A DNA stretch of 11,224 bases from a virus (lineage: Duplodnaviria; Heunggongvirae; Uroviricota; Caudoviricetes): the IMG/VR virus record IMGVR_UViG_2541047682_000007; one strand, 5' to 3'. The notes beneath the pieces are model-generated. The model did no database searches. It saw nothing but the letters and a program-made list of their open reading frames with translations, and was not told the origin of the DNA. Position numbers and translations under genes: made by a program. Below, one piece after another: positions 1 through 7,112 of this stretch (position 1 is its first letter; each line of letters begins with the position of its first letter).

Positions 1-97
1 AGTCTTGAGTCTTGAGTCTTGAGTCTTGAGTCTTGAGTCTTGAGTCTTGAGTCTTGAGTCTTGAGTCTTGAGTCTTGAGTCTTGAGTCTTGAGTCTT
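1..97 (-). repeat. Tandem heptanucleotide repeat array (AGTCTTG as written; 5'-AAGACTC-3' on the coding strand), 13 complete copies plus a 6-nt partial copy abutting the window edge
   Basis: Direct reading: perfect 7-bp periodicity from position 1 to 97, ending in ...gagtcttaacat. On the minus strand this reads ATG TTA (AAGACTC)n, encoding RLKTQDS heptads. The array runs into the window edge, so the true copy number is unknown. Confidence 0.95.
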
Positions 98-102
98 AAC
101 AT
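1..102 (-). CDS. neuO: 5' end of polysialic acid O-acetyltransferase NeuO (partial; gene continues beyond window start)
   Basis: ATG at 102..100 (minus) followed by TTA and the AAGACTC repeats. This matches my recollection of the neuO contingency locus of K1 prophage CUS-3 (heptanucleotide VNTR in the 5' coding region). Position immediately downstream of a P22-like endosialidase tailspike fits. Identity rests on the repeat signature only, since the gene body is outside the window. Confidence 0.7.
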   Translation of the reverse strand, partial: MLRLKTQDSRLKTQDSRLKTQDSRLKTQDSRLKT

Positions 103-159
103 ATTAGTATCCTACGTTATTTTACCACTAGTTACTTTTCTTGTCATTAAAAAGCATTT

Positions 160-190
160 AAATTTTTATATTTAATTTCGTTGACGTCAA
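160..190 (-). promoter_or_regulatory. Candidate sigma70-like promoter region for neuO (TTGACG at 190..185 on minus strand inside palindrome TTGACGTCAA; A/T-rich -10 candidates TATAAA/AAAAAT around 170..162)
   Basis: AT-rich intergenic region between the tailspike stop (256) and neuO start (102). Hexamers found by eye; spacing is not ideal (14-17 bp depending on the -10 chosen). Low confidence. Confidence 0.2.
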
Positions 191-255
191 TGTTTTTTGC
201 CAATGTACTTACTTCTTTATGTGATCAGTTCATATTTTTGACGCCAACGAAACAT

Positions 256-3201
256 TTAGTGCTTCCCTTCTATTAAGTCTAACCTAGCTTTTATTCTTTC
301 TATTTCTCTGCGCTGCCATGCTGCCTCGATATAGAATAAGAGATCAGGTCTGACCCCCCATCTAGATCCTGCTGGCGTTATTTCAACGCGCTCAATGATG
401 TCTTCCATTACCATCACTGGATTATCATCCTCATCAACAATGATGCTCCCGTCATTATCAGTCAGCGGCATTTCCCTTTGGCCAGTAATGACGTCATCAT
501 ATACTGCGGGATAATCGTCATAGCAAAGAAAGGCATAGCGGCATGTTGTGCTTTCTTCTTCCATGAGTCCGTGAGAAATAAGAACATCACGAAGTTGCTG
601 CGCGATTACACCATGATGTATCCTCGCCCCTTCTTCCCCCTTTATAGCGACAGCGTTCAGCCATTTATAAGCGATATACCTGACGTCACCCCAGGCATCC
701 AGCAATGTTTCGTCAGGAGAGACCGGCTCTGTCTTTAATGTTCCGTCACTGGTAACCACAGGATTGGAGCCAAGATAAACTATCGAGAACCTGTTTCCCG
801 GACCACCAAGAGCATTTACATTATCAAGATAAGGTTTAACATCTCCGTTCTCAAAAAGATGTTCGAGTGCGTTATATACCGCGCGACGTGGAGTACTGCT
901 TCTGGAACCATGCAACGTTATCATTGCACCATCTGCTGAAGACGTTGTTTCACCGCCGCTAACGATTAATCTCTGAGCGGTAACATCATCAGACGGTACT
1001 TTCTTCGCAATAATGGCGTAATTACCCTCAAGTTTGACTTCCGCGCGAACTTGTCCTGATGTACCTGCATGGACAGTCAGTGACTGGACGGCAACATCAT
1101 CTGTGAAATCAACGGGTACAGGAACCGTCCTCACGCCTGACGTCGACATAAAAGTAGGAAGCGTTCTGTTAGGAGTGGCTCCGTAGACAAAATCCCTTGA
1201 AACAAATTCTTCCTGTTTAATTTTCACCCTGAAACAATACAAATCAGCCGGGTGACCATCGTGAACATAAGGATATTTTCTGTTGTTATCCCCTATGCTC
1301 CATGGGTTTAGAAAGTCTTCCCCACCGAAAATGTAGTACAGCCAGTTGTCTTTGATACAAACTGAACCAACACCAACCGCAGAGTTAACTATTCCGCCCT
1401 GATAAATCTGATCAGTAACATTAACCCACTCTACATTATCCAGACTCCACTCATTGACGTTAACTCTGGTCATAAATGTTCTTGGATAGTTTCCTGCATA
1501 ACGGTTATCAGGTTCTCCTCCTTCCCACTCACCAAATGCGCGCTCACTGCCAAAAATAATCAGCTCATCGCCAACTTTGGCAAAAGGAAGGTTTGAGTGA
1601 TGAACATTATTTGGGAAGCGAAGAGAATTCCATGATGTACCTAAATCAGAGCTTCTGTGCAATGAACTACCGGGTTGAGTACTTAATGTCCCCCTGGTCG
1701 TCAGATACAGAATGCCATCATAATATTTTACACATGGCTCAGATGCATTCGCCTCATATTCTGCAGGTATGCGTCTGCGAACAAAGCTACCAGGAGAACC
1801 GAAAGCATCAGAGAAATAGAGTATCCCAAGCTCGCGTGGACCAATATCACCATTATGGTAGCCAACAGCAAAACTGTTATCGCTAATCGTCGCAAAACTG
1901 TGAATCTCAGTAACAGGAGTGCTTCCGTCAACAAAAGAAGGAATAGTTCCAAGACTGGTTTTTCTCCATGGTGACGAGTGAAATGATGTACCAAAACTCC
2001 AGTATCTACCCTCGTTATTCTGATCCACATCCTGGGTATTTTGCGTCGTAACTGTAAAAGTATTTTTATCAATAACAGTAGTCACCGTCATATTCCCGGT
2101 AACACCTGTAACACCAGAGTTTGAGAAGTTGACAAAATCACCAGCAAATAATCCGTGATCAGTAATGCGAATATAAGCGACTTGCTGATTTGCTGCTTTC
2201 GTTATACCACCATAAACGCGAAGGCTGCGACTCATTGGGCGATCCCACAACTCTGCAACCTGCAGTTTATTTCCGCTCACGGTCCGCGTCTCAATTACAG
2301 CAAAAAGGCGATTTCTGACAACCCCCATACTCATGCAGTGATAGTTAACTGTGGGATAGTTTTCATGTAAATCTGTAAGCCATTCCGGCGTTGTCCAGGT
2401 CTTCCCGTCATCTCCTGAGCGAACCCATGCAACATGGAGGTTATTTACACCATGGCGGTCTCCAGCCATAAAAGGCGCATAGATGACATTGTCATATACA
2501 AACGTTTTATCCTGCGTCCAGGCGTTGTACCACGGTGTATCTGTAATTTTAAATAACTCTCCCTGGATAAAATCTTCAGAAACATAAAAAAGAGGCTGAC
2601 CCGGTATTCTCTCAAATAAAAAACGAGCATTTTTAAATCGACTGACATCTGGAAGAGTTGATACTTTAAAAGTAAGCCCTCGCCCATCTATCTTTTCACC
2701 ACCTGTTGCAACAGAAAGTAATTCTGATAGAGCTGATGTATCATCATGAACACCATCACCAATAGCCCCCCAACCTCTTACATCATAACTGTCTCTCCAT
2801 CTTGCTATCTGAAGTTTTGGGTATTTATTCGCTCCATCTGGGTCTTCTAATTGCTGCCGTAGTTGATCAGGATCATACTTCAGCACATTCTGGAAATAGA
2901 ACTGCTGTACGCCATACGCATCGTACACAGCCATAGAATGGCCTTGCACAGTTACGAACTTGGCAATCCGTCCGTTATATACAGGGTAACCAGCAGCGTT
3001 AATGATGATTGGTTGCGAAACAGGAACGTGAGAGCCGTCTTCGTTCTCTACATAAACCTGAATCCGGTTTTCAGGATTTACCGGGTCAGTGTCAATTTTA
3101 CCGATATAAATTTTGCCATTGGCTACGGCTTTAAAAGAACGCGCCATAGTGAAGAGTTGCGAAGGCATCGATACAATCACATTGGCTGTAATGTCTGTCA
3201 T
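256..3201 (-). CDS. Tailspike protein: P22-type head-binding N-terminal domain fused to an endo-N-acetylneuraminidase (endosialidase) domain with a C-terminal intramolecular chaperone (S74-type) domain
   Basis: 981-aa ORF. N-terminus [13 protein letters not shown]...[21 protein letters not shown]...[15 protein letters not shown]...LKYDPDQ closely parallels the P22 gp9 head-binding domain as I remember it. Central region carries sialidase Asp-box motifs ([16 protein letters not shown]). The C-terminal ~150 aa resemble the auto-cleaving chaperone domain of K1-phage endosialidases. RBS GGAG 8-9 nt upstream of ATG at 3201. Confidence 0.9.
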
Positions 3202-3259
3202 TTAATTTGCTCCAGATGCAAAGAATCGCCGCAGCATGGCCACGGTGAATTTTGGGCAT

Positions 3260-3282
3260 AAAAAAACCCAGCCGAAGCTGGG
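3260..3282 (-). terminator. Rho-independent terminator between ant and the tailspike gene
   Basis: On the minus strand: stem CCCAGC, loop TTCG, stem GCTGGG, followed by TTTTTTT (plus-strand 3267-3282 cccagccgaagctggg preceded by an A-run). Confidence 0.6.
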
Positions 3283-3301
3283 TCGTTGCGTTGGTTATCT
3301 G

Positions 3302-4204
3302 TCAGTAATTATGTACTGAAGGAGGTAATTCTTTATTCTTAAGTCTCATCCATGCGGAAAGATTCGTTGGTCCGTCTGGCTCATTGATATCAACATCTCG
3401 TGTGTGATTGATTAAAACGTCTCTCGCCATATCGATAATACGGGAGAACTCATAACCGCAGTCATGACATCTGCCGGAATAGTTCGATTGAATTTGTTTT
3501 AGCGCCGGATACAGTTCGCGGAATAATGCCTGTGAGCGGTTGGCATAATCCCATAGCCATACAAGGCTGTTTGCTTCTTTTGCAGAAAGCTCGTTGGTTT
3601 TCTTCTCTTGTTTGCCGATGAACTCACCTTCAAGCACTACCCTGTGGATGTACTCTACTGCTTGTGGTATCTGAGATGCATCAAGCTCTTCAATACTTTC
3701 CACATTGAAACGCTGATGAATCATTGCATAAGCTTCTGGGTACATTAGATGCTTTTTGCTGACTAGCATATTTACAGCATCACGAAGCGGAGTCCTGTCA
3801 TCAACAGATGTTTTCTTCCGTGCATTTGCTGCCTCTCCCTTTGTCCAGTAGTCATGCAGCACAGTAAAGCATTCTTCCTGGTACTGAATCAGTTTATCGC
3901 GGATGTCAGCACGAACTTTCTCAGGGTTGATGCTGAACAGCCATCCATTTAACTTCTTCAAAGGAAGGCAGAGTAGCTTACGAAGCTTACCATCAGCGGC
4001 AACCATGTTCATATGAACACAGTTGAATTTGCTAATCTGCTTCATGAGTTTTGTTTGCTGCGTTGACCAGCTCATTCCGAGGTTTTCAACGATTGGCTTC
4101 ATCGCAACATATGCAACTCCGGCAGCCATGGCGGTGATAATTTGCTGACCGTTGAATGGCACGTAAGAGGTGTTCACTGCTTCTAAAATTGCTATACTAT
4201 TCAT
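3302..4204 (-). CDS. ant: Antirepressor Ant (P22 immI-type, 300 aa)
   Basis: ORF-track ORF 3302..4270 contains an internal ATG at 4204 preceded by GGAG with a 10-nt spacer. From that start the product is 300 aa, the length I recall for P22 Ant, beginning [21 protein letters not shown]. The longer 322-aa reading begins with GTG at 4270 and lacks a good RBS. Position between arc and the tailspike matches P22 immI. Confidence 0.8.
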
Positions 4205-4285
4205 GTTGGTTTTTCTCCACGGATTTACCGACAACCGAAGCCCTGACTGTTCCAGCAGTTGGGGCTTCACTGTTTTGATTTCTTT
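4205..4285 (+). ncRNA. Candidate Sar-like antisense RNA opposite the ant ribosome-binding site and start
   Basis: Plus-strand extended -10 element TGcTATACT (4190-4198) would put a start near 4205, directly opposite the ant start codon. Plus-strand hairpin GAAGCCC..ACTG-ttccag-CAGT..GGGCTTC (4237-4268) is followed by a T-rich tract ACTGTTTTGATTTCTTT (4269-4285). This is analogous to the P22 sar RNA. Inference only. Confidence 0.3.
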
Positions 4286-4436
4286 GCCGCATCAAGCATC
4301 ACTTCTGAAAACGTGCGCTTGCCACTGAATACTCTTTCTCTTCTCAATTTTTCGTTCGTGCCAAATGATTCGCCATGAACAAAATTTGGTCTTAAAATGG
4401 TAATCGCAATCTCTTTGACTACTGCATCCAAGCGAA

Positions 4437-4589
4437 TCACACCGTTACCCCCTCTCTCTTCAGGCTGTCTATCAGGCGCTTGATAACCTCTGAGTTAAAC
4501 GACCTGCACTCTTCCTTTGCCCTGCTACCGATAGCATCCTTTAACGACTGCGGCATCCTTACCAAAATCTTACTTATTTCTTTCTCCAT
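4437..4589 (-). CDS. arc: Arc repressor (ribbon-helix-helix, 50 aa)
   Basis: ATG at 4589 preceded by GGAGG with a 5-nt spacer. Product MEKEISKILVRMPQSLKDAIGSRAKEECRSFNSEVIKRLIDSLKREGVTV shows the P22 Arc pattern (MP-F/Q..., GRS-NSE). The longer track ORF begins with TTG. Divergent from mnt, upstream of ant. Confidence 0.8.
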   Translation of the reverse strand: MEKEISKILVRMPQSLKDAIGSRAKEECRSFNSEVIKRLIDSLKREGVTV

Positions 4590-4703
4590 GTTACCCTCCA
4601 CGCAAACAACTCTTTTCGAATACAAAAGATAGCAAAGTGAGTATATCTAGTCAAAATTTTTTTGCATACACTTTGCTATCAAATTGAATACCAAAGGTGT
4701 TAT
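4590..4703. promoter_or_regulatory. Divergent Pant/Pmnt control region containing a 13-bp perfect inverted repeat (aGATAGCAAAGTG 4627-4639 / CACTTTGCTATCt 4669-4681; 29-bp spacer)
   Basis: Intergenic region between divergently oriented arc and mnt. The inverted repeat was read directly. Minus-strand TTGACT (4654..4649) with TATCTT (4631..4626) 17 bp downstream is a plausible Pant. Exact hexamers are uncertain. Confidence 0.5.
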
Positions 4704-4952
4704 ATGGCAAAGGGTGTGTCAATTTCTCCAACTACGGTAAGAATCCCTGAATCTTTACGCGAGGCTCTTGCTGTCAGAGCATCAAAAAATGGTCGCTCTG
4801 TTAACTCCGAGATCGTCATGATTTTGCAAGCCGCGATTGATGAAGATAGGTCGCCAAAGTCAGTTGAGTCATTTGCTCAGCAAGAAGCTGATAAATTCAA
4901 AGAGGCGCTACTTGAGACGCTAAAGACCATGTATGCTAAGGATGAAAAATAA
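4704..4952 (+). CDS. mnt: Mnt repressor (ribbon-helix-helix, 82 aa)
   Basis: ATG at 4704 with AAGGTG 4 nt upstream. Product MAKGVSISPTTVRIPESLREALAVRASKNGRSVNSEI...ALLETLKTMYAKDEK parallels P22 Mnt (82-83 aa; ANGRSMNSE...TLKDLYKK). The track ORF is 5'-extended by an implausible upstream start. Confidence 0.85.
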   Translation: MAKGVSISPTTVRIPESLREALAVRASKNGRSVNSEIVMILQAAIDEDRSPKSVESFAQQEADKFKEALLETLKTMYAKDEK

Positions 4953-5488
4953 TGCTGCACACAATTCATTTCTTATGCCCTGTTAACACTGCCACTGTTG
5001 GGCAACTTCAGAACCACTGTCTCACCGCATTATCTCAAGGCGCAACTGAATTAAATATCCATATATCAAGTCAGGGAGGGGAAACTGCTGCTGGCTTTAC
5101 TGCGTATAACTTTCTTAAGTCACTCCCTGTTACCGTTAGAACTCACAACATAAGCAATGTTGAATCCATAGCTAATATCGTTTTCCTGGCTGGCTCAGAA
5201 CGTTTCGCAAACCCATTATCAAGATTCCTGTTACATCCTCTATTATGGTGCTTTGCCTCCCCAGCCGCCGACCATGCCAGATTGAGAGAGTACGGGAAAT
5301 GCCTCGATAACGATCTTGATCGCTTCGTTGAGACGTTCAATATCGACATCGGAACCCATATTAGGTGGGCATCCCTGATAGCAGACTCGACCATTTTGGA
5401 TGCTAACAAGGCTCTTGAGCATGGCATAATTAATTCCATAAAAACTGCAAGGCTGGCATCCAATCAGGCAAACTGGTGGGTTGTTTGA
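4952..5488 (+). CDS. ClpP-like (peptidase S14 / ClpP-crotonase fold) serine peptidase homolog, 178 aa, translationally coupled to mnt
   Basis: Start ATG overlaps the mnt stop (TAATG at 4950-4954). By-eye alignment to E. coli ClpP: ISSQGG vs INSPGG; NVESIANIVFLAG vs GQAASMGAFLLTAG (catalytic Ser aligned); RFANPLSRFLLHP vs RFCLPNSRVMIHQP (catalytic His aligned); LDNDLDRF vs ERDTERDRF (catalytic Asp aligned). Followed by a terminator hairpin. Confidence 0.7.
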   Translation: MLHTIHFLCPVNTATVGQLQNHCLTALSQGATELNIHISSQGGETAAGFTAYNFLKSLPVTVRTHNISNVESIANIVFLAGSERFANPLSRFLLHPLLWCFASPAADHARLREYGKCLDNDLDRFVETFNIDIGTHIRWASLIADSTILDANKALEHGIINSIKTARLASNQANWWVV

Positions 5489-5513
5489 TGGGTAAATCAT
5501 GATTACTCCTTAT

Positions 5514-5538
5514 AAAAAACCCACCTGACGGTGGGTTT
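5514..5538 (+). terminator. Hairpin terminator downstream of the ClpP-like gene (possibly bidirectional)
   Basis: aaaaaaCCCACC-tgac-GGTGGGttt. The GC stem is flanked by an A-run upstream and T's downstream, so on the minus strand it reads as stem plus TTTTTT. The plus-strand T-tract is short (3 T). Confidence 0.5.
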
Positions 5539-5767
5539 AGTCAAACATAGTGTTTCTAAAGTCTCTCGCATACCCTGCTAACACTCTCATTCTATTATGA
5601 TTGTTAGCAGACATGTGAGCTACAGGATGAAAAAGAGCAATCAATGAATACCTGTTCTCATCAAAAAGATTTTGTGCATAAACGAGAGCGGTATTTGAAG
5701 TGGTTTACTGAATTTGGCCACCTGAACAGAGGTGATATGCTCACCTCAGAACAACACAGGTGCCATA

Positions 5768-6915
<1,148 letters not shown>

Positions 6916-7112
6916 CTCGGTGGCCAGTTTTTGTTGACCACTTCAATGCAACAGTTCGCTATTGCAGGGGCGGCATCGGTTCGCCCTTTCAACCCGATTT
7001 TATCGGTACAGCATTCACGAAAAAACATTTTAACCGGAGCAGACTTTAAACAACCAAGAATGAAAAGCTTGCTCGAAAAGCTTTGGGATATTTTGAAACA
7101 ACAAGGCCGTCC

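Follow-up and report, generated by a model that had tools for sequence, protein, structure and literature searches.

Escherichia coli and its relatives normally have one ClpP, and among the many regulators that the ClpXP and ClpAP proteases control are stress factors, antitoxins and phage proteins. In Pseudomonas aeruginosa, the atypical protein ClpP2 enters ClpP1-ClpP2 heterocomplexes that modulate ClpXP (PMC13056064). PpClpP1 of Pseudomonas plecoglossicida (Protein Data Bank (PDB) entry 9UXT) is the shortest characterised ClpP and is missing the N-terminal region; it forms a homotetradecamer with an axial pore of 42.7 Å, and in its 'triad' of Ser73, His96 and Pro151 the serine and the histidine are indispensable while the third residue is dispensable (PMC12900304). 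The peptidase activity of PpClpP1 is ~13-fold under that of the canonical paralogue, ClpX does not pull it down, and alone it degrades neither casein nor GFP-ssrA; together with canonical ClpP it forms a stable heterotetradecamer, which binds ClpX and is slightly better at degradation than the canonical homomer (PMC12900304). Here we describe a gene for a protein of this kind in a prophage. In an 11,224-nt stretch of caudoviral DNA (IMG/VR record IMGVR_UViG_2541047682_000007; the whole stretch is called the window below), the repressor gene mnt of a P22-like immI region is followed by an open reading frame (ORF) for a 178-amino-acid ClpP-like protein, which, judged from its sequence and a structural model, almost certainly belongs to the PpClpP1-type accessory ClpP subfamily.

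The 178-amino-acid protein scores above the cut-off of the Pfam family CLP_protease (PF00574, MEROPS S14) over residues 24-165 (44.4 versus 20.2 bits; E=2.2e-11) and matches several NCBIfam ClpP models, every one of them under its equivalog cut-off. An AlphaFold (AF2) monomer model, made with 26 homologues, has a mean predicted local distance difference test score (pLDDT) of 91.6, and Foldseek matched it to many solved ClpPs with a template modelling (TM) score of 0.74-0.83 and a probability of 1.00, the shared architecture being an alpha/beta fold with a handle helix. On alignment with E. coli ClpP, S72 (in the motif VESIAN) corresponds to Ser97, H95 (LLHPL) to His122 and G43 (ISSQGG) to the oxyanion residue Gly68. 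These three residues, as well as S39, S40 and G42, are invariant across the 26-27 aligned family sequences, and the oxyanion loop reads S39-S40-x-G42-G43. An earlier note on this DNA had proposed a ClpP fold, with ISSQGG as its oxyanion region and a complete Ser-His-Asp triad; the fold and the oxyanion assignment were borne out, as were the serine and the histidine, and only the aspartate has to be given up. The position of E. coli Asp171 is taken by Ser146 in the window protein and by A, S, G, P or T in the family, never by D or N. The aspartate that had been put forward, D121 in DNDLDRF, was rejected as a triad residue by homology, because alignment to both E. coli ClpP and 9UXT gives Ser146 at the third position. 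D121 is itself invariant in the family and sits in a handle-helix stretch that has no counterpart in E. coli ClpP; a non-homologous role for it is possible. A shortened handle region was also considered and rejected, since the spacing between the histidine and the third position is 51 residues, compared with 49 in E. coli, and the region is therefore of full length. By alignment and model, the protein is a ClpP-fold protein with a conserved Ser-His centre, for which peptidase activity and assembly into a 14-mer are predicted. Because dN/dS is ~0.07-0.09 among the prophage-borne orthologues, whose synonymous sites are near saturation, the protein can be taken to be maintained by strong purifying selection.

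The first ~24 residues of mature ClpP, which provide the axial gating loops, are absent from the window protein, and an Asp stands at the position of the Arg170-type ring sensor. In the docking pocket for ClpX and acyldepsipeptides (ADEP), 8 of the 12 residues are polar or absent when compared with E. coli ClpP, the changes including Y60N, Y62H, F82S, I90H, L114N, L189K and F49T. The C-terminal tail reads NWWVV (window 5470-5485); other family members end in NWWV, RWWV or HWWN and PpClpP1 in QWSV, the model shows a terminal beta-strand at this point, and canonical ClpP is without a counterpart of the aromatic motif.

The placement of the protein among ClpPs is carried by two comparisons. A family profile run against the PDB retrieved 9UXT over its full length with E=8.7e-53, the best canonical ClpP reaching only ~1e-13, and Foldseek superimposed the model on 9uxt_A with a TM of 0.93, a root-mean-square deviation of 1.6 Å and 39% identity. 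When 1.84 billion cluster representatives were scanned, 8 clusters matched at E<=1e-30 and 524 at E<=1e-10, many of them 180-190 amino acids long; by this census, short ClpPs of this type are a modest but real subfamily. The same comparisons bear on whether the gene might code for a head-maturation (prohead) protease or the remnant of one, as its match to PHROG 94 'head maturation protease' (E=7e-21) and the label in one GenBank record would have it. That match, however, is limited to the protease core of far longer PHROG profiles, the NCBIfam model Clp_rel_HeadMat (NF045542) yields 49.3 bits against a cut-off of 120, and the protein is far closer to the cellular ClpP paralogue 9UXT. Within immI, the gene has mnt on one side and a convergent toxin gene on the other; no capsid gene is beside it, the virion genes are read from the opposite strand, and no prohead protease gene was evident in the examined parts of P22-like genomes. 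A role in head maturation, already thought unlikely when the gene was first noted, can hardly be right.

In phage P22, Arc represses both Pant and Pmnt, and Pmnt is active in the lysogen. The gene upstream of the clpP-like ORF codes for a real Mnt homologue, with a ribbon-helix-helix (RHH) N-terminal domain and a C-terminal tail, and operator binding is predicted for its product. The window Mnt is 36% identical to P22 Mnt over almost the full length (residues 11-79), and mnt is divergent from arc and ant, its position and orientation relative to arc-ant being as in P22. Annotation errors are spreading around this repressor, with P22 mnt and PHROG 2685/795 labelled 'partition protein ATPase'. 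The coordinates of the ORF and its junction with mnt are as the earlier note gave them: the mnt TAA (4950-4952) overlaps the clpP-like ATG (4952-4954) by one base, in the sequence TAATG, and the AAGGA ribosome-binding site sits within the final mnt codons. Downstream of the two genes, a hairpin has the appearance of a bidirectional terminator that closes the mnt-clpP transcript, its T-run being the stronger one on the minus strand, and a stretch of phage Emek identical to window 5497-5538 (42 bp) carries an annotated terminator feature. The overlap, the ribosome-binding site inside mnt and the hairpin together point to a co-cistronic arrangement and agree with the co-expression with Mnt that had been proposed.

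The arc-mnt region contains a sigma-70-like promoter directed at arc (4654 to 4626, minus strand) and a perfect 12-bp inverted repeat, GATAGCAAAGTG/CACTTTGCTATC, whose arms (4628-4639 and 4669-4680) are separated by 29 nt; a related, imperfect 15-nt copy of the repeat overlaps the start of mnt (4704-4718). These repeats, the imperfect copy included, are candidate Mnt or Arc operators. If the P22 circuit is a guide, production of the clpP-like protein would go with that of Mnt, placing it in the established lysogen, and Arc would silence the gene during lytic growth; by this analogy, expression of the clpP-like gene in the lysogen is likely.

The gene neighbourhood was surveyed in 165 loci collected from species-representative genomes and viral contigs, with inspection of the gene upstream. 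Among clpP-like orthologues at least 79% identical, 46 of 52 loci have a Mnt-like gene that ends in the same TAATG junction, the six exceptions being truncated or frameshifted copies and phage E212, which was damaged by an insertion sequence (IS); an RHH gene upstream was absent in all of the surveyed loci below 79% identity. The conserved coupling to mnt that the earlier note suggested looking for is thus present at the close loci, and it is not a property of the 50-75% homologues, which occupy at least four other prophage slots with no RHH gene. Ahead of the close clpP genes stand at least six unrelated Mnt N-terminal DNA-binding sequences, one of them essentially that of P22 Mnt, and all of these types continue into a similar C-terminal tail (...ETLKTMYGKDEK). 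Because unrelated N-terminal domains join a similar tail and clpP, a recombination boundary lies inside mnt; the conserved unit is therefore the 3' end of mnt plus clpP, ribosome-binding site included. Mosaic Mnt proteins were seen at loci L100-L127 and others, where varied N-terminal domains precede clpP genes that are at least 97% identical.

Outside immI, the interval that separates the Rz/lysozyme genes from the small terminase gene holds, in antisense orientation, a 75% orthologue as well as the 52-57% homologues of Klebsiella and E. coli; the Proteus copy is in the early-left region of a lambdoid prophage, and the Pantoea copies are inside Mu-like tail gene clusters. At 23 of 40 Mnt-free loci, both nearest ORFs of at least 90 amino acids are on the opposite strand. 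A whole ant-arc-mnt-clpP block is found between tail genes K and L of Escherichia phage PhiR12_1 (PhiR12; locus L003, 3606-5618), a lambda-like siphophage, and this immI-like block is antisense to the tail operon. Seen across these loci, the clpP-like family is prophage cargo (a moron) that occupies at least five slots in enterobacterial prophages, usually antisense to lytic genes. In Massilia, the gene is chromosomal, and in 54 loci it is preceded on its own strand, within ~0.1-2.1 kb, by a HIUase homologue; in Pseudomonas, the family gene sits among metabolic genes on the chromosome. The idea of Mnt and the ClpP-like protein as a module does not survive these findings, as family members are also ordinary chromosomal genes in both genera. 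An E. coli lambdoid group has a gene for a 182-amino-acid protein on the same strand, 78 nt upstream (locus L166, 2219-2767; loci L157-L164, 5374-5922). The sole match of this neighbour, to Abi_2, is sub-threshold (E=0.04), and it could be either a partner or a separate moron; no conserved protein partner was found across the family loci, the 182-amino-acid neighbour being confined to this one group.

The slot behind mnt can hold other cargo. In Salmonella phage S.Kent 1-2-1 (locus L170, 2182-2744), the same mnt, with one residue different, is coupled through ATGA to an unrelated 105-amino-acid gene, the product of which has a signal-peptide-like N-terminus and no match in Pfam or PADLOC. At locus L146 (3729-4566), the 105-amino-acid gene is followed by a clpP copy without its first 55 codons, an arrangement that suggests cargo replacement in the post-mnt slot. 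The earlier note had called this position a classic slot for superinfection-exclusion or moron genes; that it holds variable cargo is borne out by this gene and by orf59a in P22.

These distributions also bear on readings in which Mnt would be a functional partner of the ClpP-like protein. The coupling to mnt at 46 of 52 close loci, and the movement of the ant-arc-mnt-clpP block as a unit into a lambda-like phage, would be expected of a protease in the immunity circuit whose cleavage of Mnt, Arc or Ant tunes the immI switch. Such a role is nonetheless very unlikely: near-identical clpP genes follow Mnt types with at least six different DNA-binding domains, orthologues of 75% identity or less have no RHH gene nearby, S.Kent 1-2-1 couples the same mnt to an unrelated gene, and E212 retains clpP although its mnt, its arc and most of its ant have been replaced by unrelated sequence. 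It is highly improbable that mnt and clpP form a type II toxin-antitoxin pair, with an RHH antitoxin and a ClpP-like toxin. While type II loci usually have a small RHH gene to which a downstream gene is translationally coupled, and Mnt also matches FitA-like RHH proteins (E=2e-8), mnt codes for a Mnt homologue of full length and occupies its canonical place in immI, the RHH partner is confined to the clade of at least 79% identity, with most of the family doing without it, and a ClpP-fold toxin turned up in none of the searches made. Because there are at least six Mnt types, Mnt-free orthologues and an instance of the same mnt with other cargo, it was concluded that mnt coupling is, on the evidence of these sequences, an expression solution for a mobile cargo gene and not a two-protein system.

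The explanation that we favour, with about even confidence in it as a whole, is that the gene is a lysogen-expressed moron that would give a single-ClpP host an accessory ClpP ring. That the subfamily has a solved and biochemically studied member, 9UXT, points to such a ring in preference to a free-standing effector. By analogy with PpClpP1, the protein would form a wide-pored ClpP-type 14-mer with weak peptidase activity of its own, and the phage ring itself would be unable to engage ClpX or ClpA. It would instead pair ring to ring with the single canonical ClpP of the host, after the example of PpClpP1 and, more loosely, of P. aeruginosa ClpP2. The host ATPases would then drive the mixed peptidase through the host ring, with an altered activity or cleavage pattern, and regulated proteolysis in the lysogen would thereby be changed. 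We consider the mixed-ring step with host ClpP possible rather than probable. The benefit might lie in phage exclusion, in prophage stability or in host fitness. A broader proposal, that temperate phages of the Enterobacterales supply a lysogen-only, gate-less ClpP ring, made in the present case from Pmnt, that hybridises with host ClpP and rewires ClpXP and ClpAP as a form of lysogenic conversion, is doubtful. If it were true, the phage might benefit through superinfection immunity of a protease-based kind or through a more stable lysogeny, and prophages would have a previously undescribed route to manipulating a central host protease.

Several points weigh against the accessory-ring explanation. 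The mixed-ring step is argued wholly by analogy, the identity to PpClpP1 is only 39%, and E. coli ClpP is not the partner that PpClpP1 evolved with. Assembly, activity and expression of the phage protein are predicted, and a promoter scan of the arc-mnt region gave no convincing Pmnt. Pmnt of P22 is itself weak. No phage link is seen for the chromosomal members in Massilia and Pseudomonas, so that nothing binds the family to phage biology in particular, and an accessory ring leaves both the invariant D121 and the WW motif conserved at the C-terminus unexplained.

A stand-alone superinfection-exclusion or anti-phage effector would dispense with host ClpP: a gate-less peptidase, produced in the lysogen, might degrade the unfolded or ejected proteins of incoming phages, or trigger abortive infection. 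Cargo slots of this kind are typical of exclusion and defence genes, with sieA of P22 just beyond this one, a YafO-family toxin gene is among the neighbours in the S88 prophage (described below), and the sub-threshold Abi_2 match of the 182-amino-acid neighbour in E. coli lambdoid prophages points the same way. The wide pore of 9UXT, moreover, could let unfolded chains in without an ATPase (PMC12900304); against this, PpClpP1 alone degraded neither casein nor GFP-ssrA (PMC12900304). Defence models gave no encouragement, as PADLOC-DB 2.0.0, which dates from 2023, matched neither the ClpP-like protein, with no family at E<=1, nor its neighbours in any meaningful way. Full-text literature searches yielded nothing tying ClpP-like proteins to phage defence, and syntenic chromosomal relatives lie beside metabolic genes in Massilia and Pseudomonas. 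We therefore hold a stand-alone effector to be unlikely.

The structural premises of the accessory ring would serve equally for a dominant-negative 'poison' subunit, which would co-assemble with host ClpP, lower ClpXP and ClpAP activity and stabilise particular proteins of the lysogen. The window protein has no canonical Asp, no Arg170-type ring sensor and no ATPase docking pocket, and the intrinsic activity of PpClpP1 is low (PMC12900304). However, the sole mixed complex to have been tested was more active than the canonical homomer (PMC12900304), and the invariant Ser72 and His95, together with the strong purifying selection, argue for a working active site; a poison subunit is accordingly judged quite improbable.

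The features of the window around the mnt-clpP pair are collected in Table 1. Over window 1-5695, the DNA matches a P22-like prophage of E. coli S88 at 100% identity, and annotated copies of this sequence exist in APEC O1 and many further strains. The 981-amino-acid tailspike may be similar to the endosialidase tailspikes found in K1-specific P22-like phages, CUS-3 among them; no CUS-3 record was present among the phage matches to the ClpP-like gene. ISEc52 interrupts the YafO-family gene, of which an intact copy is annotated in S88 (Pfam YafO_toxin, E=3.4e-22), and immI thereby abuts the early-left genes erf and ssb (flank from 6946 onward). In the S88 prophage, ejection-protein genes follow beyond yafO; the window has none of these. 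Because ISEc52 joins immI straight to the erf/ssb early-left genes, the prophage in the window is a deleted (defective) remnant, in which the immI block is still intact. The exact clpP-ISEc52 junction was not found among 5,426 complete E. coli genomes. In the same genome set, the mnt-clpP stretch had a match, in some cases partial, in 172 genomes, of which 81 cover at least 80% of the query; all of the matches are chromosomal and none is on a plasmid. Among GenBank phage records, 6 of 50,697 carry the clpP-like gene.

Table 1. Features of the window, in order of position
Feature	Position	Strand	Remarks
Tailspike gene, 981 amino acids	256-3201	minus	Identical to the tailspike of the S88 prophage (S88 is a K1 strain)
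ant, antirepressor, target of Mnt repression	3302-4204	minus	Pfam P22_AR_N E=5e-45, P22_AR_C E=2.7e-28; RefSeq annotation
ORF of 57 amino acids between arc and ant	4267-4440	minus	Hypothetical in RefSeq; no family match
arc, 50 amino acids as in RefSeq	4437-4589	minus	Pfam Arc E=9.6e-12; RefSeq annotation, identical S88 sequence
arc-mnt divergent control region, 114 bp	4590-4703	–	
mnt, 82-amino-acid Mnt-type RHH repressor, first cistron of the operon	4704-4952	plus	Pfam Arc E=9.5e-11
Translation-initiation region of the clpP-like ORF	4938-4954	plus	AAGGA Shine-Dalgarno sequence (4938-4942), 9-nt spacer, ATG; read from the sequence
clpP-like ORF, 178 amino acids, second cistron	4952-5488	plus	
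Hairpin with 9-bp stem	5517-5538	–	Fold -14.5 and -14.9 kcal/mol; z ~ -3.2; 0 of 200 shuffles as good
3' remnant of convergent YafO-family toxin gene	5537-5695	minus	Outside the mnt-clpP module; severed by the IS element
ISEc52, IS3 family	5696-6945	plus	Terminal inverted repeats TGAAGTGG... at both ends

The protein family described here is already known, with a solved and assayed member, and annotations routinely label the gene a Clp protease subunit. What appears new, as far as full-text searches show, is that the subfamily is a recurrent prophage cargo in the Enterobacterales and that in P22-like immI regions the gene rides on the mnt transcript. Searches of the full-text literature on 9UXT, on ClpP-like proteins with prophages or defence, on immI, on CUS-3 and on phage-encoded ClpP returned as relevant only the papers on PpClpP1 and P. 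aeruginosa ClpP2, in which a prophage ClpP is unmentioned. An atypical ClpP subunit added by a prophage could alter host proteolysis as a form of lysogenic conversion, and the mnt-clpP stretch is matched in ~3% of complete E. coli genomes, including the K1/APEC strains S88 and APEC O1. The hypothesis of prophage remodelling of the host ClpP machine is attractive and directly testable, as a solved homologue, catalytic mutants and ClpX assays exist for the subfamily; should the protein be inert or redundant, it would be merely another moron without a known benefit. The finding also corrects GenBank and RefSeq annotations of the gene. Labels in these databases range over 'head maturation protease', 'hypothetical protein' and the generic 'ATP-dependent Clp protease proteolytic subunit', and the ClpP-like gene of phage phiv205-1 is mislabelled 'head maturation protease'.

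As in P22, the immI region of the window has ant and arc diverging from mnt, a small cargo gene that lies within the mnt transcript ahead of a terminator, and accessory genes beyond it. The cargo itself differs: a ClpP subunit coupled by TAATG in the window, orf59a in P22, where it directly follows mnt after a 99-nt gap and lies inside the mnt transcript. The earlier note had put sieA next to mnt in P22, and sieA does come in this part of the P22 region, although only after orf59a and with its own promoter. Downstream of the cargo, P22 has sieA, whereas the window and S88 have a convergent YafO-like toxin gene and no sieA homologue. The P22 counterpart of the arc-mnt region contains Pant, Pmnt, Oarc and Omnt; Oarc and Omnt are adjacent there, and the layout of the candidate operators in the window is unlike that. 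At the arc-ant junction, P22 has the sar antisense RNA, and the window has the 57-amino-acid ORF (4267-4440).

Among ClpPs, the E. coli protein (PDB 1YG6 and 3MT6) shares its fold with the window model at a TM of ~0.76 and 22-23% identity. ClpP2 of P. aeruginosa keeps the Ser-His-Asp triad and has a length of ~200 amino acids. It is alike in concept, being an accessory paralogue that is encoded away from clpX and enters mixed 14-mers, but it was not the closest relative in either sequence or fold searches. The head-maturation proteases (NCBIfam NF045542; PHROG 94 and 133) share the ClpP-like core and are also phage-encoded, in contrast to which the window gene has no scaffold or capsid fusion and no capsid neighbours, and lies in the immunity region on the strand that is expected to be expressed in lysogeny. 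The closest counterpart is PpClpP1, which has in common with the window protein the N-terminal truncation, the Ser-His pair, a non-acidic third position (Pro151 in PpClpP1, Ser146 in the window protein), the handle motif DHAR..EY..LDxDL and a W-rich C-terminal strand, at a length of 183 amino acids compared with 178. The biochemistry exists for PpClpP1, while the phage protein is known here from its sequence and a monomer model. PpClpP1 is chromosomal and its host also has a canonical ClpP; the window gene is prophage cargo, carried into hosts that normally have a single ClpP.

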